64,000 nucleotides of DNA. Origin: an uncultured Candidatus Saccharibacteria bacterium. GTDB lineage: Bacteria > Patescibacteriota > Minisyncoccia > Phycocordibacterales > UBA9973. Below the pieces are notes generated by a model. It was not told the origin of the DNA and did not search any database. It worked only from the letters and a program-made list of their open reading frames with translations. Positions 10,569 through 62,831 of this stretch are shown in pieces (position 1 is the stretch's first letter; the number at the start of each line of letters is the position of its first letter). The translations under genes and the position numbers were made by a program. Location: NCBI GenBank assembly GCA_964634365.1, contig CAZWJU010000002.1, forward strand, positions 103,150 to 167,149, read 5' to 3'.

Positions 10569-10712
10569 ACCTAATTTATGCTATGATTTAATAGGATATG
10601 AGATTTTTGACCTTTGGTCTTTGTCACAGAATGAGCAATCATTCGTAATATAGTATGTAAGGTAAAAAGCCTTATATTTAAAAGCATTAATCTTAACTAA
10701 TATAAAATATAT

Positions 10713-11174: not shown

Positions 11175-11242
11175 TACAATTATCATTAAAAAGTATTAAA
11201 ATTAACAATAGTTATAGAAAATGCACACCGAAAAAAATCTGT

Positions 11243-24659: not shown

Positions 24660-24750
24660 TCTTTTTGATATTTTTTGCACAATAATATTGTACGTATATT
24701 GTACCACGCAAATACACAGTAAATACAACAAAAAAAGTGAATTTCTATAG

Positions 24751-24778
24751 AAAATCCCCCACTCGGGGGATTTTCTAA
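24751..24778. terminator. Terminator hairpin of the AAAATCCCC...GGGGATTTT family
   Basis: gaaaatccccc-actc-gggggattttc. Confidence 0.55.
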
Positions 24779-24786
24779 ACTATTTA

Positions 24787-34756: not shown

Positions 34757-34783
34757 ATATTTTAGATAAAATTGATAATTGTT

Positions 34784-40557: not shown

Positions 40558-42036
40558 TTATTTCTGTTCTTCCCAAAAAACAGTGGAATATTTATCTGAA
40601 GTAAGCGGAAATGATGGTGGTGGTCCATAAAGTAAGTTCGCATCGTAATTTAAATAACGTAGATCGTATCCTGTTCCATCAGTGAAAGCAAAACCATAAC
40701 GAAGATTTGTTGCTATCATACCAAACAAGGTCAGTATGTCTCTTTGGGCTGTAGAACCACAGTTTCCTGCAGACCCTCCGTTTCCATAATAATATCTACC
40801 TGCACGTCCATTTTGCGCAACTAAGGCCGCATCTATACGCAAATCATCTTCAGAAATAAGTCCGACATTGATATTTTTCTGAGCTATAAGACCAATAACG
40901 TCTTGTCCATCATAATTTGTATAAATAAGATCGTTGTTTATAGTTATGCTTCTTCTACTTGCAATTATATCTGGAAAGTGACCAGCGGTAATGGTTAATC
41001 TAGCTGTGTTTATTTGACCATCAACCCAAACGTTATCGTCTAAAAATATAATCCCATTATTAGGAAAAGTATAATTTCCAAGCAATGTCTGCCCTCCAGA
41101 AGATTTTATACTCCAAGTACCCCATCCGTCTTCATTTAATTTATTCTTACATCCATTAGGAACAGCTGTAAGACTTGTAACTTTGTACAAATCATATGTA
41201 TCATTAGTTTTTAATACTATATGATATCCAAGTGAGCCTGAAGGATTGTAGTAATGCCCATCTGACTGAGCATCTGTTTTCATCTGCGATATATTCGCAG
41301 TGATACCAACGAAATCTGCAGTTGGGTATGGAAAAGACCTGCCTGCCATAAAAACATCAGATCTTTCATTTATGGTATTTGGTGGGGTTTCAGCAGAAAC
41401 ATAATTAGTATATGTACCAGAAGATGGAGGGGGTTTCACGTGAGTATGTACTCCAAATTCTAGCTTCTCTGAACCAGAATCTTCGTGATCCGGATCATCG
41501 TAAGAAGAAACAGCTGATGTTACTAAATTATGAGCAAGACCATCAAAACGAACACCTCCATTTGCGTGAATAGGGCCAAATGTTTCAGTTCCCTCACCAA
41601 AACGCATAACATCATTTGCCACAACGGCATATTTTGCCAAAGAAGGTATCGCTAAGTGAGTCATTATTGTACGATATACGCCTGGATTTGATACAACAGT
41701 ACCTGTGGATTTAATTTTTATTAGAGTAGAACCTGTAATAGGGGGGGTTATAGTTAGGCTGTATTGACCTATTATATTACCGTCTTTATCTTTAAAATCA
41801 TGTATATATGGACCTGGAGATCCTGTGCCGTCTTGATAATCTGTGGGGGAATGTGCCAAATGCCATCTATAGTAATCTATCCCCGCTTCTGCAATCTGAA
41901 AAGCCTGCTCTCTTGCAACAAGATGTCTAGTGGCCTTAAGACTTGTGTTAGCCCAACCAATAAATGCATACACAACAGTAATTGCAATTGATGAAAAAAT
42001 AATTGTATTTAAAAGTATAAAACCTCTTTTTTTCAT
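40558..42036 (-). CDS. Large pilin-like / minor pilin-type secreted protein with an N-terminal hydrophobic anchor
   Basis: MKKRGFILLNTIIFSSIAITVVYAF is a prepilin-like leader lacking Glu5. Sits in the T4P cluster. Confidence 0.5.
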   Translation of the reverse strand: MKKRGFILLNTIIFSSIAITVVYAFIGWANTSLKATRHLVAREQAFQIAEAGIDYYRWHLAHSPTDYQDGTGSPGPYIHDFKDKDGNIIGQYSLTITPPITGSTLIKIKSTGTVVSNPGVYRTIMTHLAIPSLAKYAVVANDVMRFGEGTETFGPIHANGGVRFDGLAHNLVTSAVSSYDDPDHEDSGSEKLEFGVHTHVKPPPSSGTYTNYVSAETPPNTINERSDVFMAGRSFPYPTADFVGITANISQMKTDAQSDGHYYNPSGSLGYHIVLKTNDTYDLYKVTSLTAVPNGCKNKLNEDGWGTWSIKSSGGQTLLGNYTFPNNGIIFLDDNVWVDGQINTARLTITAGHFPDIIASRRSITINNDLIYTNYDGQDVIGLIAQKNINVGLISEDDLRIDAALVAQNGRAGRYYYGNGGSAGNCGSTAQRDILTLFGMIATNLRYGFAFTDGTGYDLRYLNYDANLLYGPPPSFPLTSDKYSTVFWEEQK

Positions 42037-42038
42037 AT

Positions 42039-42641
42039 TTATAAGTTATCTTTTAAATTACGAAAAGATACTTGTGTACTAATTGTAGTTGCAGGTGGTA
42101 ATTTATTCAAATCAGAGTCAATTATAAAATTGATTCTGATTAATCTTATGGACGATATAGATACTGGCTCTGGTAATGGATCTGTAGATCCATCATAATA
42201 TGCGTCGTAATAAGAAAATATGGGCACGCCACCGTTTTGTATATTATGAACAATATTCGTATTAACCTCAGACGCAGTAGGATAAACAGCTGGATTACCT
42301 GATGGATTTATAACCCCCTTCTTTAATGTTGTGCCTGATAAATAGTACCTAACACGATCCTTATCTCCATCACTATCTATATCAGAGAAAAAAACAAAAG
42401 ATGTTGCCGTAGCACTTTCTATTGGATAGGCACCTGCAGAAGACGGGGAAGCTGAACGGATTTCATTTGCTATTGGTCTTAATATCTTTCTGGCCTCATC
42501 TGCTGTATTTAAACCGGATTGAAATATTCTACTAAATACAATTGTGTCTTTATCTACCGAACTTGATATAACAACAACCAAGCCTATAACGGCAACAGTC
42601 ACTAAAATTTCTGTAAAAGTAAAACCTTTTTGTTTATTCAT
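42039..42641 (-). CDS. Type IV prepilin-like protein with an N-terminal cleavage/methylation domain
   Basis: MNKQKGFTFTEILVTVAVIGLVVV is the classic G/FTxTE prepilin motif. Confidence 0.75.
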   Translation of the reverse strand: MNKQKGFTFTEILVTVAVIGLVVVISSSVDKDTIVFSRIFQSGLNTADEARKILRPIANEIRSASPSSAGAYPIESATATSFVFFSDIDSDGDKDRVRYYLSGTTLKKGVINPSGNPAVYPTASEVNTNIVHNIQNGGVPIFSYYDAYYDGSTDPLPEPVSISSIRLIRINFIIDSDLNKLPPATTISTQVSFRNLKDNL

Positions 42642-42645
42642 GCAG

Positions 42646-44442
42646 TTATTGAGATATTGCTATCTCTTCTTTTTGCCAATCTTCTGATAAATTGATTGAT
42701 TGTATATAATCCTGATATCCGGACTTGGTTACCGTTATTGTATATTCACCATAAGTAAGACCAGAAAAAGAAACTTGCCCGGGTGGAGTGCATTCAGTTG
42801 TGAAAGTAAATGATATATCAGAAACATTTGGTGTATACAATGAATCTTCAGTATTTAAATATATTTTGTATCTAAAATACCTGTTACCACTTATAGAAGA
42901 ATTTATATTTGTATTTGATACAGTATAGTATGTCCCATCTGTGCCATCAGGTCCAGAAAAATTCCAAGTTATACCATCATTATTGGCGGCAACTTGTATT
43001 TTAACACTATCAACACCTGTCAATAAAGGCTGACTATTTGGACTCCATAATATCTGATGGAAGTTACTAATACTATTAGTATCAAAAGTAGAGGATTCTA
43101 GCCAACCTCCTTCTATATATGAACCAAATACATCTTCAATCTTTATAGATCCAGGAACAGAGTTTGTATCTATACGTCCACCAATATTCATATATTTAGA
43201 ATAAGAACCTACAAGTTCCTGACCAGCACCATCAGACCAATCTGTTTGTGTTAGAGATCCCCGGCCAGTAATTAAAGTGTTATCATAACCCGAAGGACCT
43301 TCTAGACGCACAGAGACATCAGTTAGAGGTAAGCCCGTAGATTGATCTCTAATTACAACAAGTATTCTTGCTGGATCTTTGGGAGCAACTATTAAATCTA
43401 AATCTTGAGAAGAATCAGGGACTAGACCTAAAGTTAAAAGTGGGTTTGTCCCTATTAAATCATATGAGCTATCAGTTAAATTTATATTATAAGTGTCCCA
43501 TTCAAGATTTGATATATTTTTATCTCCAAAAGAATCCGTTGTAAAATATGAATCGTATTTGAGAACATCTGGTAATGTACCTATTATTTTTGACCCATTT
43601 ATTTGAAAATCAATATTTTGTGCAGTTGTACAATCTTCAAAAATTGTATTGGCTTTTATTGTACTTACCTTATCTATAAAAAAGCTTACTTGGGTTATTT
43701 GCTGTACTATAACAGTTTGGTTGGGTTTAGTTGGGTTAGGATTTTGAAGATCACCAATAGGATAAGTCTCTTCACTTGAGTATCCATCCTTAGAAACTTT
43801 TATTTTATAAGAATCTATAGAAGGCGGTGCATCTACTATATTTAAAGTACCGTCTACGCCAGAAAAATCATCTATATGAATCTCTGGTGATAGTTCAGTA
43901 TTGTCAATCTCAATTAAGGCATCTGGGACAGGTAATCCGTTTGCATCGTACACTCTTATTACAAGAACACCGTTAGTAGAAGCTGTCTCTAGGTTTTTAG
44001 GTGCTATGTGTGTTGTATATTCGACAGGTATAAAGTTTTTACAAGTAGAACAATTAATTTCAATTGCTACTAATTTATTATCCGCTGGAGATAAATCATT
44101 CGGCATTCCTCCTAGTGTACCGTCAAAAGGATCATCTATGTTTCTTATTGTAATAAATACATCAAAATTTATATTATCCCTTGTTAATGTTTGTGATTGG
44201 AGAAGTGTACCGGAGGGAATACCTCCGACTGTGCCTATATTCTCGTAGGGCATATTGCGTATTATTTCAAATTGTTCGTTTGCTAATGCTGCTGCTATTT
44301 GTCTTTTAGATAAAACAGATGTGGTTTCAAGTATTTTTGAATACACATTAAATATAGCGATAGAAAAAGCCACTATAAAAGCTACAGCCACCAAAGTTTC
44401 AATTAATGTAACCCCATTATTATTTTTTTTAATTGAAATCAT
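42646..44442 (-). CDS. Very large type IV pilin-like protein (598 aa) with a prepilin N-terminus
   Basis: MISIKKNNNGVTLIETLVAVAFIVAF prepilin motif, followed by a large beta-rich domain. Confidence 0.7.
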   Translation of the reverse strand: MISIKKNNNGVTLIETLVAVAFIVAFSIAIFNVYSKILETTSVLSKRQIAAALANEQFEIIRNMPYENIGTVGGIPSGTLLQSQTLTRDNINFDVFITIRNIDDPFDGTLGGMPNDLSPADNKLVAIEINCSTCKNFIPVEYTTHIAPKNLETASTNGVLVIRVYDANGLPVPDALIEIDNTELSPEIHIDDFSGVDGTLNIVDAPPSIDSYKIKVSKDGYSSEETYPIGDLQNPNPTKPNQTVIVQQITQVSFFIDKVSTIKANTIFEDCTTAQNIDFQINGSKIIGTLPDVLKYDSYFTTDSFGDKNISNLEWDTYNINLTDSSYDLIGTNPLLTLGLVPDSSQDLDLIVAPKDPARILVVIRDQSTGLPLTDVSVRLEGPSGYDNTLITGRGSLTQTDWSDGAGQELVGSYSKYMNIGGRIDTNSVPGSIKIEDVFGSYIEGGWLESSTFDTNSISNFHQILWSPNSQPLLTGVDSVKIQVAANNDGITWNFSGPDGTDGTYYTVSNTNINSSISGNRYFRYKIYLNTEDSLYTPNVSDISFTFTTECTPPGQVSFSGLTYGEYTITVTKSGYQDYIQSINLSEDWQKEEIAISQ

Positions 44443-44444
44443 TT

Positions 44445-45662
44445 TTATATAGAATCCATCAATGAATACATAGGAGATATCATCGATATGGCAAAAAAAC
44501 CTACAGCTGCTCCTATAAGAATCATAAGTACAGGCTCAATTATTGTAGATAGATCTTTTGTTTTACTATCGACCTCAGCTTCATAAAAAACTGCTACATC
44601 TACCAGCATACTAGATAGCTTACCTGTCTCTTCTCCAACCTCTATCATTTCCCCTACCATTATTGGATATAAATCTACTCTCTCTTTAAAAACTGATGAT
44701 AGTGCGACACCTTTTTGAATATCGACAACAGCTTTTTGTATTATATCTTTATAAAATTTATTTTGTAAAACTTCTCCTGTAATAGTAAGGGCTTTTGTCA
44801 TGTCGACACCGGAAATCAGTAGAGATGAGAGGGTTCTTGTTGTGCGAGCAGAATTAACTTCTTTAACTATTTGACCAACAACTGGAATACGAAAAACTAA
44901 AAAATCAAAATATTTCTTCAAAAATTTGGCTCTGAATAGAAAAAATAAACCTATAAAAAATATAAATATAAACAGTAAAGACAACAAGGGATTTTTTGAT
45001 AATGAATCACTAATAAAAATAATAAATTTTGTACTAGCTGGTAAATCTATGTTCAATTCCTTAAAAGTAGACGTTAGTACAGGAACAACAAAAATCATCA
45101 TAAAAATACCTATTAGAAATATAGCCCCTACTATTATAGAAGGGTACATAATTGCACCTTTAATTTTCTTATTTAGATCATAAGTTTTTTGAAGATTTTG
45201 GCCAATCTCTTTAAGAGAATCCGACATGTTTCCAGACTCTTCTCCAGCTCTAACCATCGATACAAAAAGAGTTGAGAATACTTTTGGATATTTTGACATA
45301 CCATCAGACAATGTTCCGCCCTGATCTATCTCTTTTAGTAAAGAATTTAAAATATTTCTAAATTTTTCATTTTTTGTTTGTTTTTCTAAAACTGTGAGTG
45401 CTCTGTAGAGTGAGAGCCCAGCATTCAACATACCACTCAAGTTTTTTGTAAAAATTATTTTTTCGTGAAGTTTTATTTTTCCAAAAATAGAATCTAGATA
45501 TGGTATGGTCAATCCAGATTTTTTGTTTTTTACTTCAGATATAGATACTGGCACTCCGCCATCAGCACGCAAAGACTTTGCTGCAGCAAATTTATCTGGG
45601 GACTCTATTTCTCCAGTTTTTTCCAATCCATCTTTTGTTTTTATTTTATATGCATATTTCAT
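44445..45662 (-). CDS. pilC: Type IV pilus assembly platform protein PilC (GspF family)
   Basis: 405 aa with three TM. Duplicated GspF cytoplasmic-domain pattern. Confidence 0.85.
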   Translation of the reverse strand: MKYAYKIKTKDGLEKTGEIESPDKFAAAKSLRADGGVPVSISEVKNKKSGLTIPYLDSIFGKIKLHEKIIFTKNLSGMLNAGLSLYRALTVLEKQTKNEKFRNILNSLLKEIDQGGTLSDGMSKYPKVFSTLFVSMVRAGEESGNMSDSLKEIGQNLQKTYDLNKKIKGAIMYPSIIVGAIFLIGIFMMIFVVPVLTSTFKELNIDLPASTKFIIFISDSLSKNPLLSLLFIFIFFIGLFFLFRAKFLKKYFDFLVFRIPVVGQIVKEVNSARTTRTLSSLLISGVDMTKALTITGEVLQNKFYKDIIQKAVVDIQKGVALSSVFKERVDLYPIMVGEMIEVGEETGKLSSMLVDVAVFYEAEVDSKTKDLSTIIEPVLMILIGAAVGFFAISMISPMYSLMDSI

Positions 45663-45674
45663 TGTGAAATATTT

Positions 45675-47432
45675 TTATTCTGAAACCACACGCAAAACCT
45701 CTTCGGTTGTAGTTAAACCCTGAACCGCCATATAAAGACCATCTTCAATCATAGTCATCATACCTTCCTTTTTTGCCTGAGCTTCTATTACATCCTCTGA
45801 TGCACCTTTTAAAATAAGCTCTTTGATCGTCGGTGTAACTGTCATAACTTCATGTATTCCAAGTCTTCCACTGTAGCCACTCTCAGACTCTTCTGAAGCT
45901 TTTGTTTTATAAAAAGGTATTGTCTCCCAAGTTGCATCTTTTGGTACAACCCCCTCGCCCTTCAATAGATCGAGCATCCTATCTAGATCAACTATTTTTG
46001 AAAGTGCAGATATCTCTTCTTCTTCTAAAAAATATTTTTCTTTTGTATTTGTAAGTCTACGCACAAGTCGCTGGGCTATTATAGTTTTGACTGTAGACAC
46101 AATCAGAAAAGGCTCAGCTCCCATATCTATCATACGAGGTATCGCTCCTGCAGAAGAGTTGGTATGGATTGTAGACAATACCAGATGTCCAGTTAGGGCT
46201 GCGTTTATAGCAAGAGAAACTGTTTCCGTATCTCGAATCTCCCCAACCATTATTATATCTGGGTCTTGGCGAAGCAGTGTTCTTAGTCCATTTGCAAAAG
46301 TTAGACCTATTTCAGATTTTACTTGAGTCTGATTTATTCTCTGCATTTGATATTCAATAGGATCTTCTACTGTAGAAATATTTACATCTGGTGTGTTTAA
46401 GATATCGAGCATTGTATAGAGAGTTGTTGTCTTACCGGATCCAGTTGGTCCTGTTGCTAGCATCATTCCTGTTTTCTGTTTCATTCCATTGTGTATTCTC
46501 TCCAGAGCTTCTCCGTGAAAACCTAATCCTTCGAGTGTATAACCTTTGGAATTTTCTTTCAAAATACGGATAACTGTTTTTTCTCCATAATAAGTCGGTA
46601 ATGTAGACACACGAAAAGATACTCTGTCCCCAGATTCTGTTGTGATTTTAAATCTACCGTCCTGAGGAAGTCTTTTCTCGTCCAGCTTTAGATTAGACAA
46701 AACTTTTATACGCGCAGTTATACCTGCTGCTGCATCACGCGGCAAAACCATCGCATCACGGAGTATTCCGTCTATTCTATAACGAACTAGGAGCTGTTCT
46801 TCTTCTGGCTCAATGTGAATATCAGAAGTATTTTGCAAAATAGCGTGAGATATCAGCGTGTCTACGATTTTTACTACAGGCAGATCCTCGGCCATTTCTT
46901 TTAGTTCTTTTTCAGACAAAGCTCCTTCTCCACTATCCTCTGAAACTGCTTTCAAAGACGCAGATTCTTTTTTTATAATATCGTCAAAATCTGCTTTCAA
47001 ACTTTTTTTGTATTGAGATAGTGCGTGCTTTATTGAATCAGAATCAGTAAGTCTAGGAGATATTTTAAGCTCAACTTTTTTCTTTATAAAATCTATAACT
47101 GAGAGATCGTCTATATCGAGCATTGCTACCTCTAGTTCATGAGGTCTTTTCTTGTATGCGATTATATTATGTTTACGAGCAATGGTCTCAGGAATCATTG
47201 ATAGAGTTTCAAAATCAATTTTTTCTGTTGCAAGAGATATAAACGGTATACCAAGTACATACGCTTGCATACGCTTGAGATCAATATCAGTAATTTTCCC
47301 AAAAGAAACTAGCACATCACCAATTGACTGATCACTTTCCTTTGCTGTTTTTTCAGCAAGTGCAATATCTGCTTTGGCTACAAGCCCAGATTCAATAATA
47401 AACTTTTTTAATTGATCTTCTTTGATCTGCAT
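45675..47432 (-). CDS. pilB: Type IV pilus assembly ATPase PilB (GspE family)
   Basis: Walker A LATGPTGSGKTTTLYTML, Asp box / His box, and an N-terminal GspE N domain. Confidence 0.85.
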   Translation of the reverse strand: MQIKEDQLKKFIIESGLVAKADIALAEKTAKESDQSIGDVLVSFGKITDIDLKRMQAYVLGIPFISLATEKIDFETLSMIPETIARKHNIIAYKKRPHELEVAMLDIDDLSVIDFIKKKVELKISPRLTDSDSIKHALSQYKKSLKADFDDIIKKESASLKAVSEDSGEGALSEKELKEMAEDLPVVKIVDTLISHAILQNTSDIHIEPEEEQLLVRYRIDGILRDAMVLPRDAAAGITARIKVLSNLKLDEKRLPQDGRFKITTESGDRVSFRVSTLPTYYGEKTVIRILKENSKGYTLEGLGFHGEALERIHNGMKQKTGMMLATGPTGSGKTTTLYTMLDILNTPDVNISTVEDPIEYQMQRINQTQVKSEIGLTFANGLRTLLRQDPDIIMVGEIRDTETVSLAINAALTGHLVLSTIHTNSSAGAIPRMIDMGAEPFLIVSTVKTIIAQRLVRRLTNTKEKYFLEEEEISALSKIVDLDRMLDLLKGEGVVPKDATWETIPFYKTKASEESESGYSGRLGIHEVMTVTPTIKELILKGASEDVIEAQAKKEGMMTMIEDGLYMAVQGLTTTEEVLRVVSE

Positions 47433-47515: not shown

Positions 47516-48919
47516 TTACCAAGTTACAACAACCATTCCTTTTGCTCCATCTGCACCCGCAGAAGTAGATCCCCCTCCATCACAATCCGGGCTTCGGTCA
47601 TATGTACCTCCACCTCCGCCTCCGCCAGGAATATTACCAACCTTAGCAGTTGCACCTAATATTTGTGGCAAACCTCCAGCGCCACCACTTGGCGCATCAC
47701 CACCTTTACCACCGAAACCTTGTTTTTCATAATTTCCTCCTCCGCTTTTATTTAAACATGCATATGCTTCAGATTGTTCGGACTGACCACCTATTATTGA
47801 ATATCCTGTAACTGTTTTACCATTTATAGTACCAGATACTGCATTCACTCCTCTTGATGCATTTGTTAGATATGCACTACTATGTAAGCCATTTTCTGCT
47901 CCATATCCTCCCGCAGCTTTAATAGTAACCCCTCCACCAATCACACTACTCTGTTCTCCCGGGGCACCATCATAAGTTGTTATACCCCCCACTGTCTTAC
48001 CACCAAGACCACCTGTTCCTACTACTACAGTGTACTCATTTGCAGTATTATTCTCTGGTAATATCGCAACAGTGTAACTTCCAGCTGCTCCTCCGCCTCC
48101 GCCAGCGCCAGCGCCAGAATCTGTAAAGGCTCCACCTCCACCTCCACCCCAAACTTCTATCATTACAGGCACTCCATAAGGAATATCGTTACCGTAGAGA
48201 GTTCCATCAGAAGTGAAAACTTTCATACCATGCTCATCTGCAGGACCAGAAACAGTTATACCGACACTTCTAGTAACACCTCCACACTCTAAGTTTAATA
48301 ACTTATAACCATTTGTCGCAAAGTTAATTATTTCAACACCTGAACCTGCTTTTGTACCTGACCATAAAATCGGCAAACCACTTGCAGTACAAGAAGCACT
48401 ATCTGAAGACCATGTTACCGTAACACCAGTAACTCCGGGATATAGATCATTTGGATAATATGTATTTGTTGCTCCGTCAGCTAAAAATACAAAATCGTCT
48501 CCGGCGCCATCACAAATTATTAAATTACCATCTGTGCCTGTACAAATTGGCGCAGGATAGGACACGTTTGTTAAGTTATCTTCAAACAACTGGCGAAAAG
48601 CATCCAATCCAACATCTCCATATACAAACAAATTCTTTGGTCCAACAAGACCAAATCCAGAAGGAGTTCCAACTTCTAAATTTCCCCAAAATGAACTAGT
48701 TGATCCGTCTCCTCCACCCAAAAATGCATTTACTGACAATCCTCCGTCTTTTACTTGATCATACGCACCAATATTTACCGGTGCTGCAACGTTACTACCA
48801 GGAGCAGGTGCTGTTGGCCCAACGAAAGCCATAGCATAGTTCATACCCATTGCAACAAACAAACCGAGTACGATTATCTTTGCGGTGCTTATTATTTTTT
48901 TTATAGAATTCTCTTTCAT
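47516..48919 (-). CDS. Secreted Gly-rich protein, hypothetical; possibly pilus- or surface-associated
   Basis: Signal peptide followed by poly-Gly tracts (GGGGGAFTDSGAGAGGGGGAAGS). Confidence 0.5.
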   Translation of the reverse strand: MKENSIKKIISTAKIIVLGLFVAMGMNYAMAFVGPTAPAPGSNVAAPVNIGAYDQVKDGGLSVNAFLGGGDGSTSSFWGNLEVGTPSGFGLVGPKNLFVYGDVGLDAFRQLFEDNLTNVSYPAPICTGTDGNLIICDGAGDDFVFLADGATNTYYPNDLYPGVTGVTVTWSSDSASCTASGLPILWSGTKAGSGVEIINFATNGYKLLNLECGGVTRSVGITVSGPADEHGMKVFTSDGTLYGNDIPYGVPVMIEVWGGGGGGAFTDSGAGAGGGGGAAGSYTVAILPENNTANEYTVVVGTGGLGGKTVGGITTYDGAPGEQSSVIGGGVTIKAAGGYGAENGLHSSAYLTNASRGVNAVSGTINGKTVTGYSIIGGQSEQSEAYACLNKSGGGNYEKQGFGGKGGDAPSGGAGGLPQILGATAKVGNIPGGGGGGGTYDRSPDCDGGGSTSAGADGAKGMVVVTW

Positions 48920-48982
48920 AATTTATTTAAATCTACTAATAATAAAAGTTTTTATATATCTAATATCATATCACAATATATT

Positions 48983-50818
48983 TTATGGATTGATATCTTC
49001 CTGTCTTTGCTCATTAAATATTGGTCTTACTCCACCTGAAGCTGTACACCAAGGATCTACTGCCGGATCACAAGGAGTACAGGTAGGATCAAGGTCTGGA
49101 TCACATCCTGTAGGTGTGCAAGTTTCTCCAATTGGCAAATACCAAACACTTGCAACCTCTGTATCAGAACCGGTATCGTTTTCACACTCTATCTCATATT
49201 CATATGGAGATGTTGATGGGCTGAGTGTTGCCACAGAATCATATCCAGATGCATCACCTCCTGTATCAAAGTTTGCTCCAGATAGAGACTCACAAGATAC
49301 TGCATCACTTGAACTCCAGCTTACATATGGATCAAGACCTGTGACTGATTCAGTACAGCTTCCTGTAAATGTTACTGATGGCTCACCTACTTCTGTTTTG
49401 TTTATGATTACAAGATTAGAACTTACCAATGTTCCGTTTGTAGCAGTACAAGTTATTTTAAAATATGTAGGATCGTTTGGAACATTCATGCCGTATTCAG
49501 TATAGTAAGTTCCCGCAACTGTAGGTACTGCTTCTGCGTCTGCGTCCCATCCTGCAATCACAACTCCAGTTTCATCTGTCTGTGATCCAGTACAAGATAT
49601 AGCTGGATTAAAGTTTGGACTATCTGATTTCCAAGATAGATCTATTTCATAAGGACTAAATACGGACCCTATAGTGTTTGTGGTTCCAGCTATGTATAGA
49701 TCAAGTGGAGGTAACATATTTTCATCAACATTTACAATTGCAGTTGAACTTACAGGAGCGCCTCCATCAGCTGGAAAACATTGTATTGTAAACATATTTA
49801 CACCTGTTCCTGTAACTAAAGGTATACTTTCTTTGTATTCAAACGCTGGAGCCATAGGTGGAAGATTTGATGCTGTGGCATTTATGATCGTACTATTCCA
49901 TGTAGGATTTACCGGAGAAGATGTGGGTATACAATTGTTATATACAGTTCCATCTGGAGAGTTCCAGTTTAGTACCACAGGTCCACTAGGAACTGTAATC
50001 GTATTTGGTAATCCTGTTATAGAAGTAGGCACTGTTGTAGTTGGTACAAACTTGAGACTACCAGTATCGGCGATTGCATTTACATGTACATCTGTAAATT
50101 GAATCCATCCTGTTGCAACAGATCCCCAAGCATAACCACTCAAGACACCTGTTCCTGGGGTATAAGAAACTCCGTAAGCAAAAGGTGATGTGTTTATGCC
50201 TGTAGCAATAAAGTTATGATCATTTGAATCATTCAAACTTATCCATCCATCAAATCCATCAGTAGCGATATCATCTCCAGATAAAACTTTTGCAAAACCT
50301 GCAAGTTCATTTGTCACCAAATCTAATTTAGCGCTACATTGACCTGTTGTACCCGCTGGACATCCAGCGTCAAATTTTACCCAACCATAGTTTTCACTCC
50401 ATGCATTACCAGTCATTAAACCAGTTGCCATGTCTATATTTACACCATAGTCTACAGCGCAACCATAAGGAGCAGTGCTACAGTTAAAAGACAACCATCC
50501 CATACCCCCAGCTTTATCATCTCCGTCTTCTGCTCCTGGAACATCGTCATAAAAAGCTAAGACTTGTTTAGCTAAAATATCTGTAATATTTTTTAAATAA
50601 AAATTATCTATTAGACCTATTTCATCTCCAACCCCACCATCATCTGGATCTCCTGCGTATATTGACCAATCTATATAAGCCTCTCCCCATGCCCAACCAG
50701 AAACATTTTGTCCGGCAGAAGCTGTAACCTGATCTGGCTTGCTTAATCCACCAATACATAGAGCAATCAGCACTAGGCTAAAAATTAGAACGATTTGTTT
50801 TTTAAGTTTATTAAACAT
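48983..50818 (-). CDS. Secreted protein whose N-terminal AW(S/G)E..GW(I/V).F repeat domain is shared with the 1902-3791 product
   Basis: Signal peptide. GWAWGEAYIDW, GNAWSENYGWVKFD and GYAWGSVATGWIQF repeats. Cys-rich C-terminus. Confidence 0.55.
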   Translation of the reverse strand: MFNKLKKQIVLIFSLVLIALCIGGLSKPDQVTASAGQNVSGWAWGEAYIDWSIYAGDPDDGGVGDEIGLIDNFYLKNITDILAKQVLAFYDDVPGAEDGDDKAGGMGWLSFNCSTAPYGCAVDYGVNIDMATGLMTGNAWSENYGWVKFDAGCPAGTTGQCSAKLDLVTNELAGFAKVLSGDDIATDGFDGWISLNDSNDHNFIATGINTSPFAYGVSYTPGTGVLSGYAWGSVATGWIQFTDVHVNAIADTGSLKFVPTTTVPTSITGLPNTITVPSGPVVLNWNSPDGTVYNNCIPTSSPVNPTWNSTIINATASNLPPMAPAFEYKESIPLVTGTGVNMFTIQCFPADGGAPVSSTAIVNVDENMLPPLDLYIAGTTNTIGSVFSPYEIDLSWKSDSPNFNPAISCTGSQTDETGVVIAGWDADAEAVPTVAGTYYTEYGMNVPNDPTYFKITCTATNGTLVSSNLVIINKTEVGEPSVTFTGSCTESVTGLDPYVSWSSSDAVSCESLSGANFDTGGDASGYDSVATLSPSTSPYEYEIECENDTGSDTEVASVWYLPIGETCTPTGCDPDLDPTCTPCDPAVDPWCTASGGVRPIFNEQRQEDINP

Positions 50819-51154: not shown

Positions 51155-51273
51155 CCTAGTTTTTGAGCTTATTTTAAATAGATTTATGGTGTGGATAACT
51201 AGCTAGACATTTGACATAATCTCTGCTCTAATGTGTTATATAGTGTTTTTTTGAAAAACGAAAATCGTTAAAT

Positions 51274-52566
51274 ATGAGAAAGTTATATACTTTTCTTCTT
51301 ATTTTGGTAGGTTTGGGATTAAATGCCCAAACAGAGGAACTTATCCCATTGGAATATGTTCCCGGAACCATCTATGCACTGTCAGCAGATGAAACTACTG
51401 GCAAGATCATGGTAGGTGGCTCATTTAACGAAAGCGCCGGCTTCCCTTTTGCAAAGTTTGCAATTATGGAAGATGATGTTTTTGTAAATCCAGGAACTGG
51501 ATTGCCTGAAGATGGAAGTGAAGGCATTATGACTTTCGCCAAATCAAAAGGTATCTTGTATTCTGGCTCTGCATCGGATGACCCGACGTGGAGGCTTGCA
51601 AAAAAAGAACCAGCCAACGGAAATTGGGAAGGTACAATTAGTATAGACGGGCCGGTTTACGCGCTCGATACACTTAGCAATGGAAACTTGCTTGTGTTAG
51701 GAGATTTTACAACTCCTTATGCTGGTGCATTTATCTATGACGGAGAAAACGCCCTACCGTTAAACGGTTTTGAGGTAATAGGAACTCCAACCGGAGTAAC
51801 TAAATTTGGCAGTAAATACTTTATCAACTACATCTCGGCGCCTCAGGATTATAAAAACATCTTCATATGGGATGAGACTTGTGAATGCGAGAGTGCAGAC
51901 GAAACAAATCTGCCAACCAACTTTATAGTTTATGCAGTTGAAAAATCAGAAGAAGAAAAACTTTATCTTTCCTTGTGGAATTTTGAAGGAGGCGATAAAG
52001 AATTTTATCAATCTTCTGATGGTATAAACTTTGAAGTAATAGGTGAATTAGATGGCACAGTCATAGGGATAAAATCTCACGGTGAACTCATTTACTTCTA
52101 TGGAGATTTGTTCGAAGTAAACGGAGAGGAGGTCAACCCTATTGTTACCTACGACCCAAATACTAGTGCCTGGGAATCTGTAGGCGGAACAACTTGGGCA
52201 GGAACAGGAGTCGCACGAGCAGTCGATTTCATGGACGATAAATTATATGCGGCCATAGGATCTTGGGTGTTCGTGTATGAATATGAAACTCCAGTAGATA
52301 CTACCGAGGATACTGTAAACATCTCAGTGTTCGATATTGAAAAAAATATCAATATCTACCCGAATCCAACAGCGAACTATGTAACACTCGAATTCGATAA
52401 CGTATTTTCTCAAAATGTGACAATCTACAACTCACTCGGAGAAATTATGTCCTTAATCGAAATTTCACGGTCAGAGGAAAAAATCGTGTTCGATGTTTCT
52501 AGCTTACCAGCTGGAATATATTCGGTAAAATCCGAAGAATTCACTGGAAGATTTCTGAAACTTTAA
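51274..52566 (+). CDS. Secreted beta-propeller-like protein with a Bacteroidetes-type signal peptide and a C-terminal T9SS (Por) sorting domain
   Basis: MRKLYTFLLILVGLGLNAQ. C-terminal IYPNPTANYVTLEF...VTIYNSLGEIMS...FDVSSLPAGIYSVKSEEFTGRFLKL matches the Por_Secre_tail/TIGR04183 pattern. Confidence 0.7.
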   Translation: MRKLYTFLLILVGLGLNAQTEELIPLEYVPGTIYALSADETTGKIMVGGSFNESAGFPFAKFAIMEDDVFVNPGTGLPEDGSEGIMTFAKSKGILYSGSASDDPTWRLAKKEPANGNWEGTISIDGPVYALDTLSNGNLLVLGDFTTPYAGAFIYDGENALPLNGFEVIGTPTGVTKFGSKYFINYISAPQDYKNIFIWDETCECESADETNLPTNFIVYAVEKSEEEKLYLSLWNFEGGDKEFYQSSDGINFEVIGELDGTVIGIKSHGELIYFYGDLFEVNGEEVNPIVTYDPNTSAWESVGGTTWAGTGVARAVDFMDDKLYAAIGSWVFVYEYETPVDTTEDTVNISVFDIEKNINIYPNPTANYVTLEFDNVFSQNVTIYNSLGEIMSLIEISRSEEKIVFDVSSLPAGIYSVKSEEFTGRFLKL

Positions 52567-52814
52567 TTACAACCCCCTTTATAGGGGGTTTTGCTTTGGG
52601 CGAAACCCCGTGAGATATATAAAATAAACTTTTTAAACAAATTTGCAGTAATTATCTCACGGGGTATACTATATATATGTCTACAGAAGAACTCGAAAAA
52701 TTAGCTAGAAAAATAATCTTTGGAACTACAACCGACGAGGAATACGCCCGCTTTATCAAAGAAAGCAAGCGCCTCATAGCCGACGCAGAGGTTGTGTTCG
52801 CTTCTTAAATATAT

Positions 52815-54665: not shown

Positions 54666-55250
54666 ATGGCAAATATAAACCTACCCCCATCAAAGTTTAT
54701 GTACAATCTGCAACACACTATCCCTTCATTTGCAGATGAAGACAAAGGTATTGTAAACGGACTTGTAGAAATAAACGCAAATTCAATAAACAAATATGAA
54801 TTCATAACTGAAAGCGGACAGCTAAAACTCGACAGAGTCGGATACTCATCGCTCGCATACCCGGTAGCTTATGGACTTATCCCACAAACATGGGATCAAG
54901 ACAACGATTTGATAGATTTCGTAATCGCAAATGTTACAGAGCCACTTGTGCCTGGAACACTCGTAGAATTGCGTGTAATCGGAGTTATGAAATTTGAAGA
55001 CGGAGGAGAGCGTGACGACAAGATCATAACAGTTATCGCCGATGACAAGAGAATGGATCATATAAAGTCTTTTACTGATCTTGGTGAGCACTGGCAAAAA
55101 GAAGTCGAACACTATTTCGAATTCTATAAACACCTAAAGAAGCCTGGTACATGTAAGCCTCTTGGATTCTTCGATAAAGACGAAGCAATCAAAATAATCA
55201 AAGAGTGCCAAGATAGATACAAAACTGATTACGCACCTAAATTAGACTAA
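54666..55250 (+). CDS. ppa: Inorganic pyrophosphatase (family I)
   Basis: YPVAYGLIPQTWDQDNDLIDFVI and VIGVMKFEDGGERDDKII motifs. Confidence 0.85.
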   Translation: MANINLPPSKFMYNLQHTIPSFADEDKGIVNGLVEINANSINKYEFITESGQLKLDRVGYSSLAYPVAYGLIPQTWDQDNDLIDFVIANVTEPLVPGTLVELRVIGVMKFEDGGERDDKIITVIADDKRMDHIKSFTDLGEHWQKEVEHYFEFYKHLKKPGTCKPLGFFDKDEAIKIIKECQDRYKTDYAPKLD

Positions 55251-56918: not shown

Positions 56919-57584
56919 TTATTCTCCGGCGTCCACTGACGGCTCCGGACTCGATGCATCTACCACATCTCCGAGATTGGTTGTGGTCTCTGAAACCACT
57001 TTTCCTTTCTCTTTGATGATGGTGATTACCTCGTAATCCTTTGCCGTGAAGCAAGGGTGGAGATCTTTGGCTGCAATCTCCTTCTTTGCCGGCTTCGGCT
57101 CATCCTTTACTACAGGAGCCGGTTCAACTTTTTTTACCGGTGCCGGGTTTTCAACCACAGGAGCGGGAGGAGTTGATTCCTCCTTTTCGCAATCACACGG
57201 AGCGGGCTCCGTTTTTGTGATCACTCCGAACTCTACGATTTCAAACTCTGTGTGCTGGCCGTTGTACCATATTGGATGGATTAGACGCACCTTAACCCAA
57301 ACCCTGTTGTGGTTAGCAACAAGATTATTAAGTTTGGTGGCACGATCTTTGTCTTCATCCTCCATACGGGCATAACTTACTTTATTGTCCCCGCACAACT
57401 TAAATGGCATACTCAGCTCATCAAATGCAATTCCGTACATTTCACCGGAAAAATTAGCAATATTAGCATTTGATGTTGAGGGCTGATTATTCATTTCTGC
57501 AGAATCCCTTTTACCGGAATCCCCACAAGAGGTCAGCACAGCCATAAATAAAACAGTAAATAAAGAAATGAAACCTATCTTCAT
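56919..57584 (-). CDS. Lipoprotein with a Pro-rich linker. Hypothetical. Markedly higher GC than its surroundings.
   Basis: Lipobox LTSCG. Local GC about 48% against about 35% for the neighbourhood. Inserted between tig and clpP. Confidence 0.6.
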   Translation of the reverse strand: MKIGFISLFTVLFMAVLTSCGDSGKRDSAEMNNQPSTSNANIANFSGEMYGIAFDELSMPFKLCGDNKVSYARMEDEDKDRATKLNNLVANHNRVWVKVRLIHPIWYNGQHTEFEIVEFGVITKTEPAPCDCEKEESTPPAPVVENPAPVKKVEPAPVVKDEPKPAKKEIAAKDLHPCFTAKDYEVITIIKEKGKVVSETTTNLGDVVDASSPEPSVDAGE

Positions 57585-60290: not shown

Positions 60291-60562
60291 GTAATCTTCG
60301 TCTGCTTACGATAGTAGTTTCGCTTTTTGAGTGATTTCTATTTGAATTTTAGTATTTTGATGATTCATATCAGAGCTTTGCAGAAATATTTTCTCACACA
60401 CTTCGCGTCTAAAATCTGGTAAGTAGGTAAATTGTTTATAAGTTCGATGTCTCCATATTAGCACACCTTTTTCATTGTGTCATTGATATTCTTGACATAG
60501 TACATATTCAGTTATACTTTATAGACATTAAAAATCCGCCTCGTTAGCAAGAGGCGGATTTT

Positions 60563-60943
60563 TTAATTTGTCTGAGATTCGTCTTCTTCCTGCAAGACTT
60601 TTTCTATCTTTGCACTATGAGTTCCCTTGTCTATACCAAGTATTATCATACTAGCACCCATACCAATCATAGATACTGCTAGTATTCTATATGCTATTAA
60701 AATTTCTTTTATTGTCTCTGGCGGAAGACTGTCTATATTTTGCGCTAGAGTAGAATGTTCACCAAAAACTCTTTTTGCTACAAATGAACCAGCAATTACA
60801 GCAAAAACACCCGCCCATGTTGCTGGTTTTTTTAAGATTTCTTTTATTTTTAAAATAGTTTCTGGTTTTGCATTTTCAACCTTTTCCATGAAAATATCTT
60901 TCTCGCTTTTTTCTATTGGTGTATTTATATTTTCTTTTTCCAT
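60563..60943 (-). CDS. Small membrane protein, hypothetical
   Basis: Two TM helices. 126 aa. Confidence 0.5.
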   Translation of the reverse strand: MEKENINTPIEKSEKDIFMEKVENAKPETILKIKEILKKPATWAGVFAVIAGSFVAKRVFGEHSTLAQNIDSLPPETIKEILIAYRILAVSMIGMGASMIILGIDKGTHSAKIEKVLQEEDESQTN

Positions 60944-60945
60944 AT

Positions 60946-61105
60946 TTTACTTGTTGTCTTCATCTAATATATTTTCAATCTCTTTCATTGCATTTAGAGC
61001 AAGTTCCTCTATCGCAGCCTTTTCTGATTCGGTCGCAGTACCCTGCTTTATCTTTTCGACCATAGCTTCGTATTCTTCTTTTGTGTATTTTATTTCGTCT
61101 TGCAT
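60946..61105 (-). CDS. Small acidic protein, about 52 aa. Hypothetical. Approximate coordinates.
   Basis: ATG...MQDEIKYTKEEYEAMVEKIKQG... read from the minus strand; too short to appear in the provided ORF track. Confidence 0.3.
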
Positions 61106-61140
61106 ATTTTTTATTTTACCATATTTAAAAAAATGAAATA

Positions 61141-61440
61141 AAAAAAACCCGCAGAACTATTGTCTGCGGGGCGGGTCCACGGCGTGGGACCCTGTTTTTT
61201 GCCGGGGGGGGTCATGACTTCCTCCTGGCTCTCTTTTTTGGCCCAGTCGCTTCCGGTTATGGAAGTCTTCCTTTCGAAAGACTTCGGCGTAGTGCGACGG
61301 ATCGGGCCTCTGTTGTGCCCCGGCTCTTGGCCTAGCCCCTATCCTTTCGGTAGGGGGGCGGGCTCTGGCACGGGGGCTTCCGGCGTTTTAGACGTCCTTT
61401 ATCGACGCATAGGTAGTATAGCACAGTGACTAATCTTTGT
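61141..61440. ncRNA. GC-rich structured non-coding segment. It appears to be a divergent fifth member of the repeat-element family; strand uncertain. A minus-strand terminator sits at 61141-61175.
   Basis: GC far above the local background. GNRA-capped hairpin gaagtcttt-c-GAAA-g-gaagacttc. Shares tttcgaaagact + tagtgcgacgg with copy D and ccgg...tagacgt with copies A/B. No credible ORF. Confidence 0.45.
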
Positions 61441-61600
61441 CAAGCCCCTTATGCTTATCCTTCCGAGTATACCTGGCTTTATCTTTATGTGTCTTCCCTT
61501 TCATGTTTACTCCTGCAAATACATTTCGAGACATCTCTCTGCTTTCCTTTGCGAGATCATGTTTCACAACAATACGGATATTTTTCTTTTTCTTGCTCAT
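61430..61600 (-). CDS. Small Lys-rich basic protein (56 aa), hypothetical
   Basis: MSKKKKNIRIVVKHDLAKESREMSRNVFAGVNMKGKTHKDKARYTRKDKHKGLDKD. Not in the ORF track because it is under 60 aa. Confidence 0.35.
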   Translation of the reverse strand: MSKKKKNIRIVVKHDLAKESREMSRNVFAGVNMKGKTHKDKARYTRKDKHKGLDKD

Positions 61601-61659
61601 AATTTTTTATTTTAAAAAATTAAACGAAAAAAGAAGGGATTACTCCCCTCTTTAAAAAA

Positions 61660-61974
61660 TTAATTCACCCAGTCATTCACGAGGGGTATTCGTGCTTGTT
61701 TGAAATATTTTTTCAAACCTACACAAATACTCTTTTGAATGTGAAGTGACACATTAAAACCAGTTACAGAAGCGAAGACCTTGTGGTCATACGCCCACGA
61801 AGTTTGATCAAGAATTTCAAGAATCTGATGGTTCATCGATATTGTCCGAAATATTCGAAGTACAATATCATCCAAAGATTCCCTGCCTCCCCAGAGAAAT
61901 AATTCGGTATGAGGCTCTTGATATCCTTCGTGGGGCACTTCTACTGCCAATGTAACTACAACAATTTTTTCCAT
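61660..61974 (-). CDS. Small hypothetical protein
   Basis: 104-aa ORF. Confidence 0.45.
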   Translation of the reverse strand: MEKIVVVTLAVEVPHEGYQEPHTELFLWGGRESLDDIVLRIFRTISMNHQILEILDQTSWAYDHKVFASVTGFNVSLHIQKSICVGLKKYFKQARIPLVNDWVN

Positions 61975-62080
61975 ACGTTTACGTTTTTTGGTTTATTTTT
62001 TGTTTCGTGTAACGTTTAAAATTTATTCTTATTTTTACTTGTGAAACTGACTAAACGTATGGATATACTTAGGCAATATA

Positions 62081-62386
62081 TTACTTTTTCTTCAGATTTT
62101 CCGGAGTCGAACAGCCGACAAAATTAAAATCAATCCCATCACTTGTGTTCGACTGGTACGGAAGCACTGCACCAAGCAGCTTTTTCATGCCATCAACAAA
62201 ATTATCAACCTCATTTGGAGCGGCTTTCTCAATTTCATCCCACGCCACATGTAAGGTCACGGTTTTACCACGCTTGTCATCTTTTTGTGAAACAAAGGTA
62301 TATTGCATATATTTATTTTTTAAAGGTTTAAAGAACAAACGCGCGGCACTGCTGTGCCTGTGCAATGTCGCATGTTCGTCCTTCAA
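62081..62386 (-). CDS. Small hypothetical protein (possibly starts at the internal MQYTFVSQ)
   Basis: 101-aa ORF. Confidence 0.4.
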   Translation of the reverse strand: MKDEHATLHRHSSAARLFFKPLKNKYMQYTFVSQKDDKRGKTVTLHVAWDEIEKAAPNEVDNFVDGMKKLLGAVLPYQSNTSDGIDFNFVGCSTPENLKKK

Positions 62387-62831
62387 TCTCTCTACAGAAC
62401 TCCGAATATTTCAGAATCCTGATAAAGGGAGCGAGTTATACTCGCCCTTTTTACCTTTTGATACCCATTGGTGTCATCAAAATCCTTTTCTCAAAAAAAT
62501 TCTGGGCTTTGCAAAGTTTTTGTTTTTTCTCCCCTGTAGGAAGAAATCCATTTTTCTTTAAAAGCTTGCTAGCTTCTTGTTCAAGTCTTTTTTGTTCCAA
62601 TGTTGTTTTTTCCATAAGATTATTTTTTCGACACAGAGTTTTTCTGAACAGACTTGTTGCATTGATCACAACACAGCAAGTCTTTTTATTTCCAAGGAAA
62701 ACTTGATGGGAGAGACGCGCCTCTCTTGCATCGCTAAACCTACCAGTCCGGCTGGCTTCGCATCTTTAGCAGACGCGATCACGTGGTCTTCGACTGTTCA
62801 TCGAGTTTTTGTTTTTGGGTGAAAAAATATT

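Follow-up and report, generated by a model that had tools for sequence, protein, structure and literature searches.

The 64,000-nucleotide stretch of DNA considered here (the window; part of contig CAZWJU010000002.1, assembly GCA_964634365.1, from an uncultured bacterium of the Candidate Phyla Radiation, CPR) encodes on its plus strand, at 51274-52566, a complete open reading frame (ORF) of 430 amino acids (aa) that starts with ATG and ends in a type IX secretion system (T9SS) sorting domain. Proteins with such a C-terminal domain (CTD) and the T9SS genes have been treated as strictly co-occurring and as confined to the Bacteroidota and the other phyla of the Fibrobacteres-Chlorobi-Bacteroidetes (FCB) group (PMC11285876). 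The first-pass annotation of the window had placed a cargo-like gene on this strand, and the ORF occupies exactly the same coordinates. The gene and its parts are as follows, with the predicted site of signal-peptide cleavage marked here and below by a slash.

51274-52566, plus strand: complete gene encoding a signal peptide, a beta-propeller, a linker and a T9SS type A CTD
51192-51220, plus strand: promoter-like site, TGGATA-17-CATAAT with a TG extended -10 (putative function, from the consensus match)
51274-51330, plus strand: Sec/signal peptidase I (SPase I) signal peptide, aa 1-19, predicted cleavage LNA/Q (from the sequence)
51343-52281, plus strand: body of the protein, a beta-propeller of about seven blades, aa 24-336 (AlphaFold2 model, predicted local distance difference test, pLDDT, mostly >85)
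52282-52347, plus strand: disordered, acidic, Thr-rich linker ETPVDTTEDTVNISVFDIEKN, aa 337-358 (338-359 in the full-length model; pLDDT <50)
52348-52563, plus strand: T9SS type A CTD, aa 359-430, with YPNP, N..G, LPAGIY and R..K motifs (profile matches and CTD model)
52571-52590, plus strand: terminator-like hairpin AACCCCCTTTATAGGGGGTT followed by a T-rich tail (putative function, from the consensus match)

The promoter-like site sits in a 119-bp divergent intergenic region that the gene has in common with a pilus-side operon, and the GC-rich, intrinsic-terminator-like hairpin starts 5 nt past the stop codon, which implies a monocistronic unit; to judge from these signals, the gene looks like a single transcription unit divergent from the pilus-side operon.

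By sequence and by fold, the CTD is a genuine type A T9SS domain. PF18962 matches aa 361-422 with 45 bits (curated cutoff 27) and TIGR04183 matches with 35.1 bits (curated cutoff 23), scores well outside what chance would give, which bears out the initial recognition of a canonical Por/T9SS sorting domain at the C-terminus. A model of the CTD alone (AlphaFold2, 39-sequence alignment, pLDDT 86) has seven strands arranged in an immunoglobulin (Ig)-like beta-sandwich, the fold that defines type A CTDs (PMC11285876, PMC10994853). Its best match in the PDB is the mirolase CTD of Tannerella forsythia (8QB1, template modelling (TM) score 0.79), followed by the FspA and NucA CTDs (8GLJ_D and 8GLK_D, TM score 0.70-0.72, 25-28% identity), and phmmer finds 8GLJ_D directly (E 2.6e-4). 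Against the consensus of 35 non-CPR CTDs, the protein is identical at 13 of the 16 strongly conserved family positions (Y362 P363 N364 P365, N386, G389, L411 P412 A413 G414 I415 Y416 and K429) and conservatively substituted at the other three, including R426 for Lys. Together with these motif residues, the profile scores, the seven-stranded fold and the position of the domain, which ends at the last residue of a protein that has its signal peptide (aa 1-19) in every allele, place it in the T9SS type A CTD family. The conserved type A motifs are known to set the fold of the CTD rather than its contacts with the translocon, the near-invariant C-terminal lysine being the sole conserved residue that contacts PorV (PMC10994853). 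Our protein ends with the [KR]xxKx motif of the family, one of whose two basic positions would correspond to the PorV-contacting lysine; K429 is invariant in all five alleles known from CPR bacteria.

The structurally characterised CTDs, namely that of mirolase and those of FspA, NucA and RemA captured in the SprA-PorV translocon of Flavobacterium johnsoniae (8GLJ, 8GLK, 8GL6), thus share with our protein both the seven-stranded Ig-like sandwich and the C-terminal [KR]xxKx motif. They differ from it in being proven T9SS signals, carried by PorV and often cleaved by PorU, whereas no such machinery is evident here. The same small beta-sandwich is also found in the DUF3244 Ig-like proteins of Bacteroides (3D33, 3SD2, 4G5A; TM score 0.71-0.76), whose Bacteroides spp. 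hosts are devoid of T9SS core genes (PMC11285876). DUF3244, however, is a stand-alone domain and not a C-terminal tag on a passenger, and its profile matches our CTD weakly, with 12 bits as opposed to the 45 bits of PF18962.

At the other end, the protein begins with MRKLYTFLLILVGLGLNA/QTEE, a classic SPase I signal peptide with Gln at position +1 of a cleavage site that was assigned by eye, without a dedicated predictor. Gln at this position (the Q-rule) has been described as specific to Bacteroidetes (PMC5837995), and on the predicted site our protein has the Gln that marks the Q-rule SPase I substrates of that phylum. The residue is kept in all five CPR alleles (LNA/Q, LTA/Q, LSA/Q, ANA/Q and SIA/Q), while the signal peptides of other window proteins mostly end in AFA/T, AVA/S, ALA/A or AHA/V; the early description of an LNAQ-ending signal peptide of Bacteroidetes type therefore stands. 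The full-length AlphaFold2 model (20-sequence alignment, mean pLDDT 78) consists of the signal-peptide helix, an all-beta body, the disordered linker and the seven-stranded C-terminal sandwich. About seven blades, each of four strands, make up the modelled body. Since Foldseek searches of the PDB with this body return generic propellers only (WD40, Kelch and the Bacteroides BT4663 sensor), the modelled fold indicates a binding platform rather than an enzyme. Its scores fall short of membership in any of the propeller families it approaches: Rax2 (20.8 bits against 28.8), DUF5122 (16.5 against 27) and Kelch_FKB95 (12.6 against 70).

The gene is not peculiar to this contig. Exact-sequence look-ups and pattern scans recovered copies from NCBI metagenome-assembled genomes (MAGs), Logan, ENA assemblies, a JGI metagenome contig and the closed chromosome CP064973.1, giving 12 related loci with identical synteny (L001-L007, L010-L013 and L015). 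The same slot, between the pilus operon and nusA, holds the gene in at least five Paceibacterota lineages and more than ten independent assemblies, including the 705,143-bp CP064973.1. Upstream, the order is always the pilus operon, a Gly_rich_2 protein, a secreted protein of ~611 aa, a protein of ~100 aa and then the gene; downstream, one or more small ORFs, NusA, a pyrophosphatase and trigger factor follow. Five distinct alleles are represented, with 100, 75, 68, 62 and 49% protein identity to the query. The 75%-identical ortholog is on a record titled Candidatus Paceibacterota bacterium, and NCBI names the 62%-identical one 'T9SS type A sorting domain-containing protein [Candidatus Paceibacterota/Pacebacteria bacterium]'; all orthologs have precomputed PF18962 matches. 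The gene is almost certainly real and resident in these genomes, and not the product of a chimeric assembly.

Its composition is native, with no significant deviation from that of the contig. The GC content, which had been thought somewhat higher than that of the neighbours, is marginally so (0.399 against a mean of 0.373 for the window genes) and within normal scatter (z 0.9); GC at third codon positions (GC3) is 0.346 against 0.270 (z 1.4), the codon-usage fit has a z of -1.3 (fourth lowest among 42 genes), and the tetranucleotide distance falls at the 56th percentile among windows of the same size. GC, GC3, codon usage and tetranucleotides, tried as a test of foreign origin, can thus neither date nor prove a transfer. 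Likewise, a missing Shine-Dalgarno (SD) sequence was ruled out as a Bacteroidota relic, because only one in 50 window genes has one.

Every domain of the protein is under purifying selection, with synonymous sites near saturation. Between alleles, the ratio of nonsynonymous to synonymous substitution rates (dN/dS) is 0.09-0.16 for the whole gene (Nei-Gojobori), and in the CTD the proportion of nonsynonymous differences (pN) is 0.14-0.37 against 0.59-0.76 for synonymous ones (pS). Across the five alleles, invariant positions amount to 40% in the propeller, 48% in the linker and 22% in the CTD. The CTD is thus the fastest-evolving folded domain, and the positions that do not vary in it are the fold-determining motifs and K429. 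The linker, by contrast, is the best conserved stretch of the protein, and its pS (0.31-0.55) is below that of the rest of the gene (0.55-0.75).

The gene is also the most variable one in its neighbourhood: among the five lineages NusA is 90-99% identical, the CTD gene 49-79%. Moreover, the NusA and gene trees are discordant. The window pairs with locus L010 by NusA (97% identity) and with locus L001 by the gene, which is 76% identical to that of L001 and 63% to that of L010. In the comparison with L010, the gene has a saturated pS of 0.74 and a pN of 0.234, the block maximum, against pS of 0.47-0.61 and pN of 0.01-0.125 in the flanking genes. In a sliding nucleotide comparison over 15 kb, L010 is nearest to the window outside the gene (80-91%), but inside the gene boundaries it reaches only 65-71%, and L001, at up to 89%, takes its place as the nearest locus. 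A different pattern separates L001 from L004. These two loci are 99% identical in NusA, 92-97% in flanking DNA and 85-94% in the propeller, but only 40-59% in the CTD, with recovery directly past the stop codon; the 5' breakpoint of this swap lies at the conserved linker and the IYPNP junction. In amino acid identity, the L004 CTD is closer to the L010 type (60%) than to that of L001 (47%), whereas the L004 propeller is L001-like (87% versus 64%). Taken together, the discordant trees, the drops in identity at the gene boundaries and the drop between the L001 and L004 CTDs indicate that homologous recombination exchanges whole-gene alleles as well as the CTD module alone. The low synonymous divergence of the linker (see above) fits a role as crossover site. 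The genes for the 611-aa and Gly_rich_2 secreted proteins join the same mosaicism to some degree, the former being just 68-74% identical in nucleotides between L001 and L004.

In these respects the locus resembles the hypervariable surface and adhesin loci that diversify by allele replacement in host-associated bacteria, which likewise have a conserved chromosomal slot with conserved flanks, alleles as little as 49% identical, trees at odds with those of the flanks, breakpoints at domain boundaries and purifying selection on the fold. It differs in that we saw neither phase-variation repeats nor silent cassettes nor invertible elements in it, and the likeness is one of probable function, not of homology.

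Two further observations can be noted here. Of the D-(S/T)-(A/I/L/V/M/T) triplets in the protein, three in all, two (DTT 342 and DTV 346) are located in the invariant VDTTEDTVNIS of the linker, which also contains an N-I-S sequon. This triplet is the general O-glycosylation motif of Bacteroidetes (PMC8550257) and, on a rough estimate, would be met by chance about once per 430 aa; the triplets may be left over from glycosylation in the donor, or the stretch may be a mere recombination junction. Further downstream, the pyrophosphatase gene (54666-55250, plus strand) is 93-96% identical to its counterparts in L001 and L010 and 66% to that in L004 (13229-13813), and over this stretch L001 and L004 share 67% of their nucleotides, compared with more than 92% in the flanks. 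Judging from this dip, recombination seems to have replaced a housekeeping gene in one lineage.

Where the gene came from can be approached through its relatives. An exhaustive profile search of 1.84 billion representative proteins (E<=1e-3) gave 8,047 matches, nearly all via the CTD, and the CPR family forms a single 50%-identity cluster among them. Next after this cluster come two orphan proteins, P0013 (E 5e-31) and P0014 (E 2e-27), and then weak full-length matches of Bacteroidota type that have the whole architecture of signal peptide, propeller and CTD. One of these, P0006, aligns end to end with the query (24% identity, E 5e-17), has a signal peptide ending in ..FS/QT and comes from a 4.5-Mb contig, on which its gene lies in an array of three to four tandem CTD paralogs. 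Another, P0012 (MFH0893731.1), is a Bacteroidota MAG protein annotated as 'T9SS type A sorting domain-containing protein [Bacteroidota bacterium]'. The named matches of a search with the CTD profile are all from Bacteroidetes, except for one record labelled cyanobacterium; as a search for further CTD proteins in CPR genomes it returned only proteins of 70-135 aa, which are uninformative about CPR. Two loci from the metagenome scan, a Bacteroidota-style CTD array (L017) and an unrelated high-GC propeller locus (L018), were set aside, neither being from CPR bacteria.

Our protein has in common with the Bacteroidota cargoes (P0012 and the tandem paralogs P0006, P0011 and P0018) the 403-472 aa size class, the three-part architecture, alignment from end to end at 23-25% identity (pairwise E 5e-17), the Q-rule signal peptide, the propeller blades and the YPNP, N..G, GxY and K..K motifs of the CTD. 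Those cargoes, however, belong to multi-megabase genomes, lie in tandem arrays beside other CTD cargoes and are exported by the T9SS, whereas the CPR gene is single-copy in a genome of the ~0.7-Mb class, with no T9SS genes seen nearby, and its product has a conserved acidic linker that is missing from the Bacteroidota proteins and falls in its own tight clade. As far as these alignments tell, the protein in its entirety is distantly homologous to Bacteroidota propeller-CTD cargoes that are themselves uncharacterised.

The closer orphan, P0013 (26% identity), also consists of a signal peptide, a propeller and a CTD. Its gene (10001-11233) is on L014, a Logan contig (SRR12487045, 1-12721) whose sample also yielded a copy 100% identical to the query. 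This contig resembles a mobile element, with a 638-aa large serine recombinase, helix-turn-helix regulators and two coupling-type ATPases of type IV secretion systems (T4SS); the best plasmid matches of a coupling ATPase, in monoderm bacteria and archaea, have 22-35% identity and are no more than suggestive. A homology search with P0013 matches P0013 alone, and no window protein besides the CTD gene product matches L014. A mobile element may therefore have been the vehicle of transfer.

An FCB or Bacteroidota origin of the gene is, in our judgement, likely. We favour a single old transfer, by which the ancestor of the clade received a complete cargo gene, because the named relatives outside CPR are Bacteroidota proteins of the same architecture, the signal peptide follows the Q-rule, the CPR members form a single cluster, and gene flow of this kind is known, Bacteroidota being among the commonest non-CPR gene donors to Paceibacteria (PMC12455944). 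The acquisition from Bacteroidetes suggested in the first-pass annotation is upheld as an old event by the Bacteroidota homologs outside the clade. It is not upheld as a recent one: the taxonomic best hits of the protein are CPR orthologs rather than foreign proteins, and GC and tetranucleotides match the contig.

The surroundings of the gene are those of a CPR genome. On the pilus side, the following features lie on the minus strand.

47516-50818, minus strand: two secreted proteins (467 aa, with a Gly_rich_2 domain, and 611 aa) at the end of the pilus-side operon (Pfam)
40558-47432, minus strand: type IV pilus genes for the PilB ATPase, the PilC platform protein and three prepilin-like proteins, divergent from the CTD gene

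The prepilin that begins MNKQKGFTFTE has an N_methyl match, a T4SS of Gram-positive type is represented by PrgI and a VirB4/TraG-type ATPase, and other genes of the window encode ComEC, RecJ, PGK, TPI, NusA, trigger factor, ClpP and RNase Y. Pfam annotation thus agrees with the earlier account of type IV pili with GFTFTE prepilins, a Gram-positive-type T4SS and short housekeeping proteins, and equally with the remark that nothing else in the window is reminiscent of a diderm Bacteroidetes: no T9SS, beta-barrel assembly machinery (BAM), lipopolysaccharide (LPS), outer-membrane protein (OMP)/porin or secretin family was found among its Pfam-annotated ORFs, and no glutaminyl cyclase was seen in the window. 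Among the genes called in ~10 kb flanks at the 12 related loci, too, there was no T9SS or outer-membrane family. A hidden Markov model (HMM) built from 39 CTDs detected no second CTD-bearing ORF in the window or in any of the sampled CPR loci, so that the co-occurrence with other CTD cargoes that goes with a functional T9SS cargo is not seen within this sequence; the same model finds four CTD ORFs in 17 kb of the Bacteroidota-type locus L009. T9SS genes are reported to be absent outside the FCB phyla, and species without them are also without CTD proteins (PMC11285876). The absence of a T9SS from the clade is thus strongly suggested. Given that neither the machinery nor co-occurring CTD cargoes were found in the sampled DNA, the protein should not be filed as a functional T9SS cargo.

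The T4SS (PrgI) and pilus genes of the window are of monoderm type, and CPR bacteria are not known to have an outer membrane. From this and from the observations above we arrive at a reading that we consider reasonably probable, namely that a captured cargo gene has become the gene of a resident, diversifying, Sec-exported surface or interaction protein with a repurposed CTD; the donor, the export route, the loss of the T9SS-signal role and the surface-interaction function are what we infer in it. A whole cargo gene, with Q-rule signal peptide, propeller and CTD, would have been captured once, long ago, from a donor of Bacteroidota or FCB type, and would have resided long enough to take on the composition of its host. 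The protein would be made from its own promoter and exported by Sec, with the signal peptide cut before Gln20, and in a cell with a single membrane Sec export alone should put it outside. With neither a T9SS nor an outer membrane, the CTD presumably has no way to serve as a secretion signal within its own cell. It may survive instead as a folded Ig-like module that retains its fold motifs and C-terminal Lys but can vary freely at its surface, and the preserved fold, the fast-changing surface and the modular exchange point to a domain that contributes to the function, and possibly the specificity, of an interaction protein that is secreted or displayed at the surface. Alleles that turn over at a high rate next to a type IV pilus operon are what one would expect of proteins exposed to partners, hosts or phages, and the protein could accordingly be an adhesin or recognition factor toward host or partner cells, or a phage target, possibly together with the adjacent pilus; we regard such a surface-interaction role, suggested by the sequence comparisons, as an evenly balanced proposition. 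That a T9SS-CTD-like domain might be reused had been proposed at the outset; purifying selection, kept fold motifs and the finding of neither T9SS genes nor a second CTD in the sampled DNA support this indirectly.

Several points weigh against this reading. The generic propeller fold found by Foldseek in the PDB gives no clue to a ligand or an enzymatic activity, and since no lipobox, LPXTG motif or second transmembrane anchor was seen in the protein sequence, the protein may either stay at the surface or be released. With five alleles and saturated dS, positive selection is inseparable from recombination. The absence of the T9SS rests on ~64 kb plus flanks and on published statements at the level of phyla. 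Lastly, the nearest outgroups, P0013 and P0014, carry no taxonomic label, and given the monoderm- or archaeal-like conjugation genes that accompany P0013 the gene's immediate source may have been something other than a Bacteroidota cell.

Other explanations of the gene's presence can be weighed against the same data. The first-pass annotation had raised the possibility of a chimeric or contaminated contig, that is, a Bacteroidota fragment mis-joined into CPR DNA, and a Bacteroidota-style signal peptide and CTD amid CPR genes are all that speaks for it. The junctions and neighbours are identical in more than ten independent assemblies of different samples, drawn from NCBI, Logan, ENA and JGI, among them the closed CP064973.1, at 49-100% protein identity. 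Assemblies so diverged cannot share one mis-join or derive from one shared erroneous reference, and the composition is native, so that we attach a negligible probability to this explanation. Alternatively, the gene could be a recent neutral passenger, functionless in the CPR cell and decaying; the slightly raised GC3 (z 1.4), the slightly atypical codon use (z -1.3) and the apparent absence of T9SS machinery would suit this. We find it scarcely credible in view of intact ORFs in five lineages with saturated synonymous sites, a dN/dS of 0.09-0.16, fold motifs intact in every allele and a native tetranucleotide signature. Descent could also have run the other way, the propeller-CTD family being ancestral in CPR and having spread outward from there. 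The lack of a taxonomic label on P0013 and P0014 and the mobile element with monoderm-type conjugation genes that carries P0013 leave some room for this, yet the CPR family is a single 50%-identity cluster against 8,047 matches, the named relatives (the record labelled cyanobacterium excepted) are Bacteroidota, Bacteroidota loci hold such genes in tandem arrays, and the Q-rule signal peptide is specific to Bacteroidetes; we therefore hold outward spread from CPR, or vertical descent, to be very unlikely.

The remaining alternatives concern what the CTD does. The clade may have a CTD-dependent pathway of its own, distinct from the T9SS, in which the domain is a cis-acting anchoring or sorting module for the S-layer, the cell wall or the pilus. 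Purifying selection on a CTD whose fold is preserved, the want of any other anchor in the protein, and the pilus operon and secreted proteins that adjoin the gene are all compatible with such a pathway. A general tag, on the other hand, would be expected on several cargoes and there is one CTD ORF in all the CPR sequence sampled, while a domain that is the fastest-evolving folded part of the protein and swappable between alleles is a poor fit to a fixed cellular receptor; we consider this pathway unlikely. A bolder proposal is that the CTD acts in trans as a mimic, engaging the PorV or PorU-PorZ surface machinery of a Bacteroidota host so as to dock the epibiont or a pilus-associated adhesin, to hijack the host sortase or to have the protein covalently attached to the host. 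The basic C-terminal motif is kept, including a Lys invariant in all alleles, and a near-invariant type A C-terminal lysine contacts PorV (PMC10994853); yet the conserved residues are mostly fold determinants, and with just 22% of the CTD invariant across alleles one invariant Lys is weak evidence. The swapping of the CTD as a module between close relatives is what a specificity determinant would be expected to undergo, CTDs are compatible in a species-specific manner (PMC11285876), a type IV pilus operon adjoins the gene, and Bacteroidota are frequent donors to, and co-occur with, Patescibacteria (PMC12455944). In the solved complexes, however, the CTD lies inside the SprA pore with ~1,000 A^2 buried on SprA, and the authors of these structures expect a lower affinity for PorV outside the translocon (PMC10994853), which makes access from outside doubtful. 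We give this mimicry a small chance.

The window holds further features of interest. A 221-aa lipoprotein-like gene at 56919-57584 (minus strand; MKIGFISLFTVLFMAVLTSC...) is 64% identical to its counterpart in CP064973.1 (pS 0.70), whereas ClpP, RNase Y and trigger factor, encoded next to it, have 94-99% identity to theirs, a pattern that marks it as a second putative hypervariable surface-protein slot. Between the terminator and a 137-aa ORF lies a small conserved ORF of 43 aa (52678-52809, plus strand; MSTEELEKLARKIIFGTTTDEEYARFIKESKRLIADAEVVFAS), and a gene of 43-48 aa is called at the equivalent position in several relatives. The 611-aa secreted protein has no Pfam match, GW-rich repeats and a Cys-rich tail, and its gene and that of the 467-aa protein are the most deviant part of the window by tetranucleotides. 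The gene at 147-1895 (minus strand), which lies in a chromosomal CPR context, encodes a secreted protein of 582 aa with a Peptidase_S74 domain (E 5.6e-8). Pfam describes this domain as a chaperone of endosialidase and no more; it is characteristic of the tail-spike and tail-fibre proteins of phages. Four large proteins (1114, 638, 1027 and 704 aa) encoded at 31412-36700 and 21648-26901 (both minus strand) have no Pfam match at E<=1e-3, and two of them are inside a T4SS-like cluster beside PrgI and the VirB4-like ATPase. About 2.5 kb at ~60300-62830 contain no long ORF but short ones only, some of them weakly conserved in CP064973.1 (61437-61655 at 71% aa identity), with no Rfam family at gathering score and no tRNA; tRNA and Rfam scans of the whole 64-kb window gave no hits, with not one tRNA gene. 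An SD-like motif within 20 nt of the start is present in only 1 of 50 window genes, and TATAAT-like boxes stand almost directly before many starts (for example upstream of 45675-47432, 39756-40520 and 34784-36700), which suggests SD-independent, possibly leaderless translation across the genome.

Our literature search found no paper on T9SS CTDs in Patescibacteria or CPR bacteria. The domain call is not new, the orthologs having already been labelled by the NCBI pipeline; what appears to be new is that the gene persists under selection, that its slot is fixed and that alleles as well as the CTD module are swapped. For the family, the gene is a well-supported exception to the co-occurrence of CTD and T9SS, being a complete cargo-type gene long kept under selection in a CPR lineage with a genome of ~0.7 Mb, and it indicates that a type A CTD can persist and be shuffled as a module where a secretion role in cis is presumably impossible. 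Retention and shuffling in such a setting would imply some other selectable activity of the domain. For these bacteria, the gene would record past contact of Paceibacterota with Bacteroidota-like bacteria and offers a lead toward finding their host, and it marks, beside the pilus operon, a hypervariable surface-protein slot, the kind of locus expected to determine the specificity of episymbiotic CPR bacteria for partners or phages. As a single gene is concerned, the practical impact is moderate. Were mimicry in trans to prove true, a secretion signal would for the first time be seen to work in trans from one phylum to another, Bacteroidota would be indicated as the hosts of an uncultured CPR clade, and CTD swaps would track host specificity.

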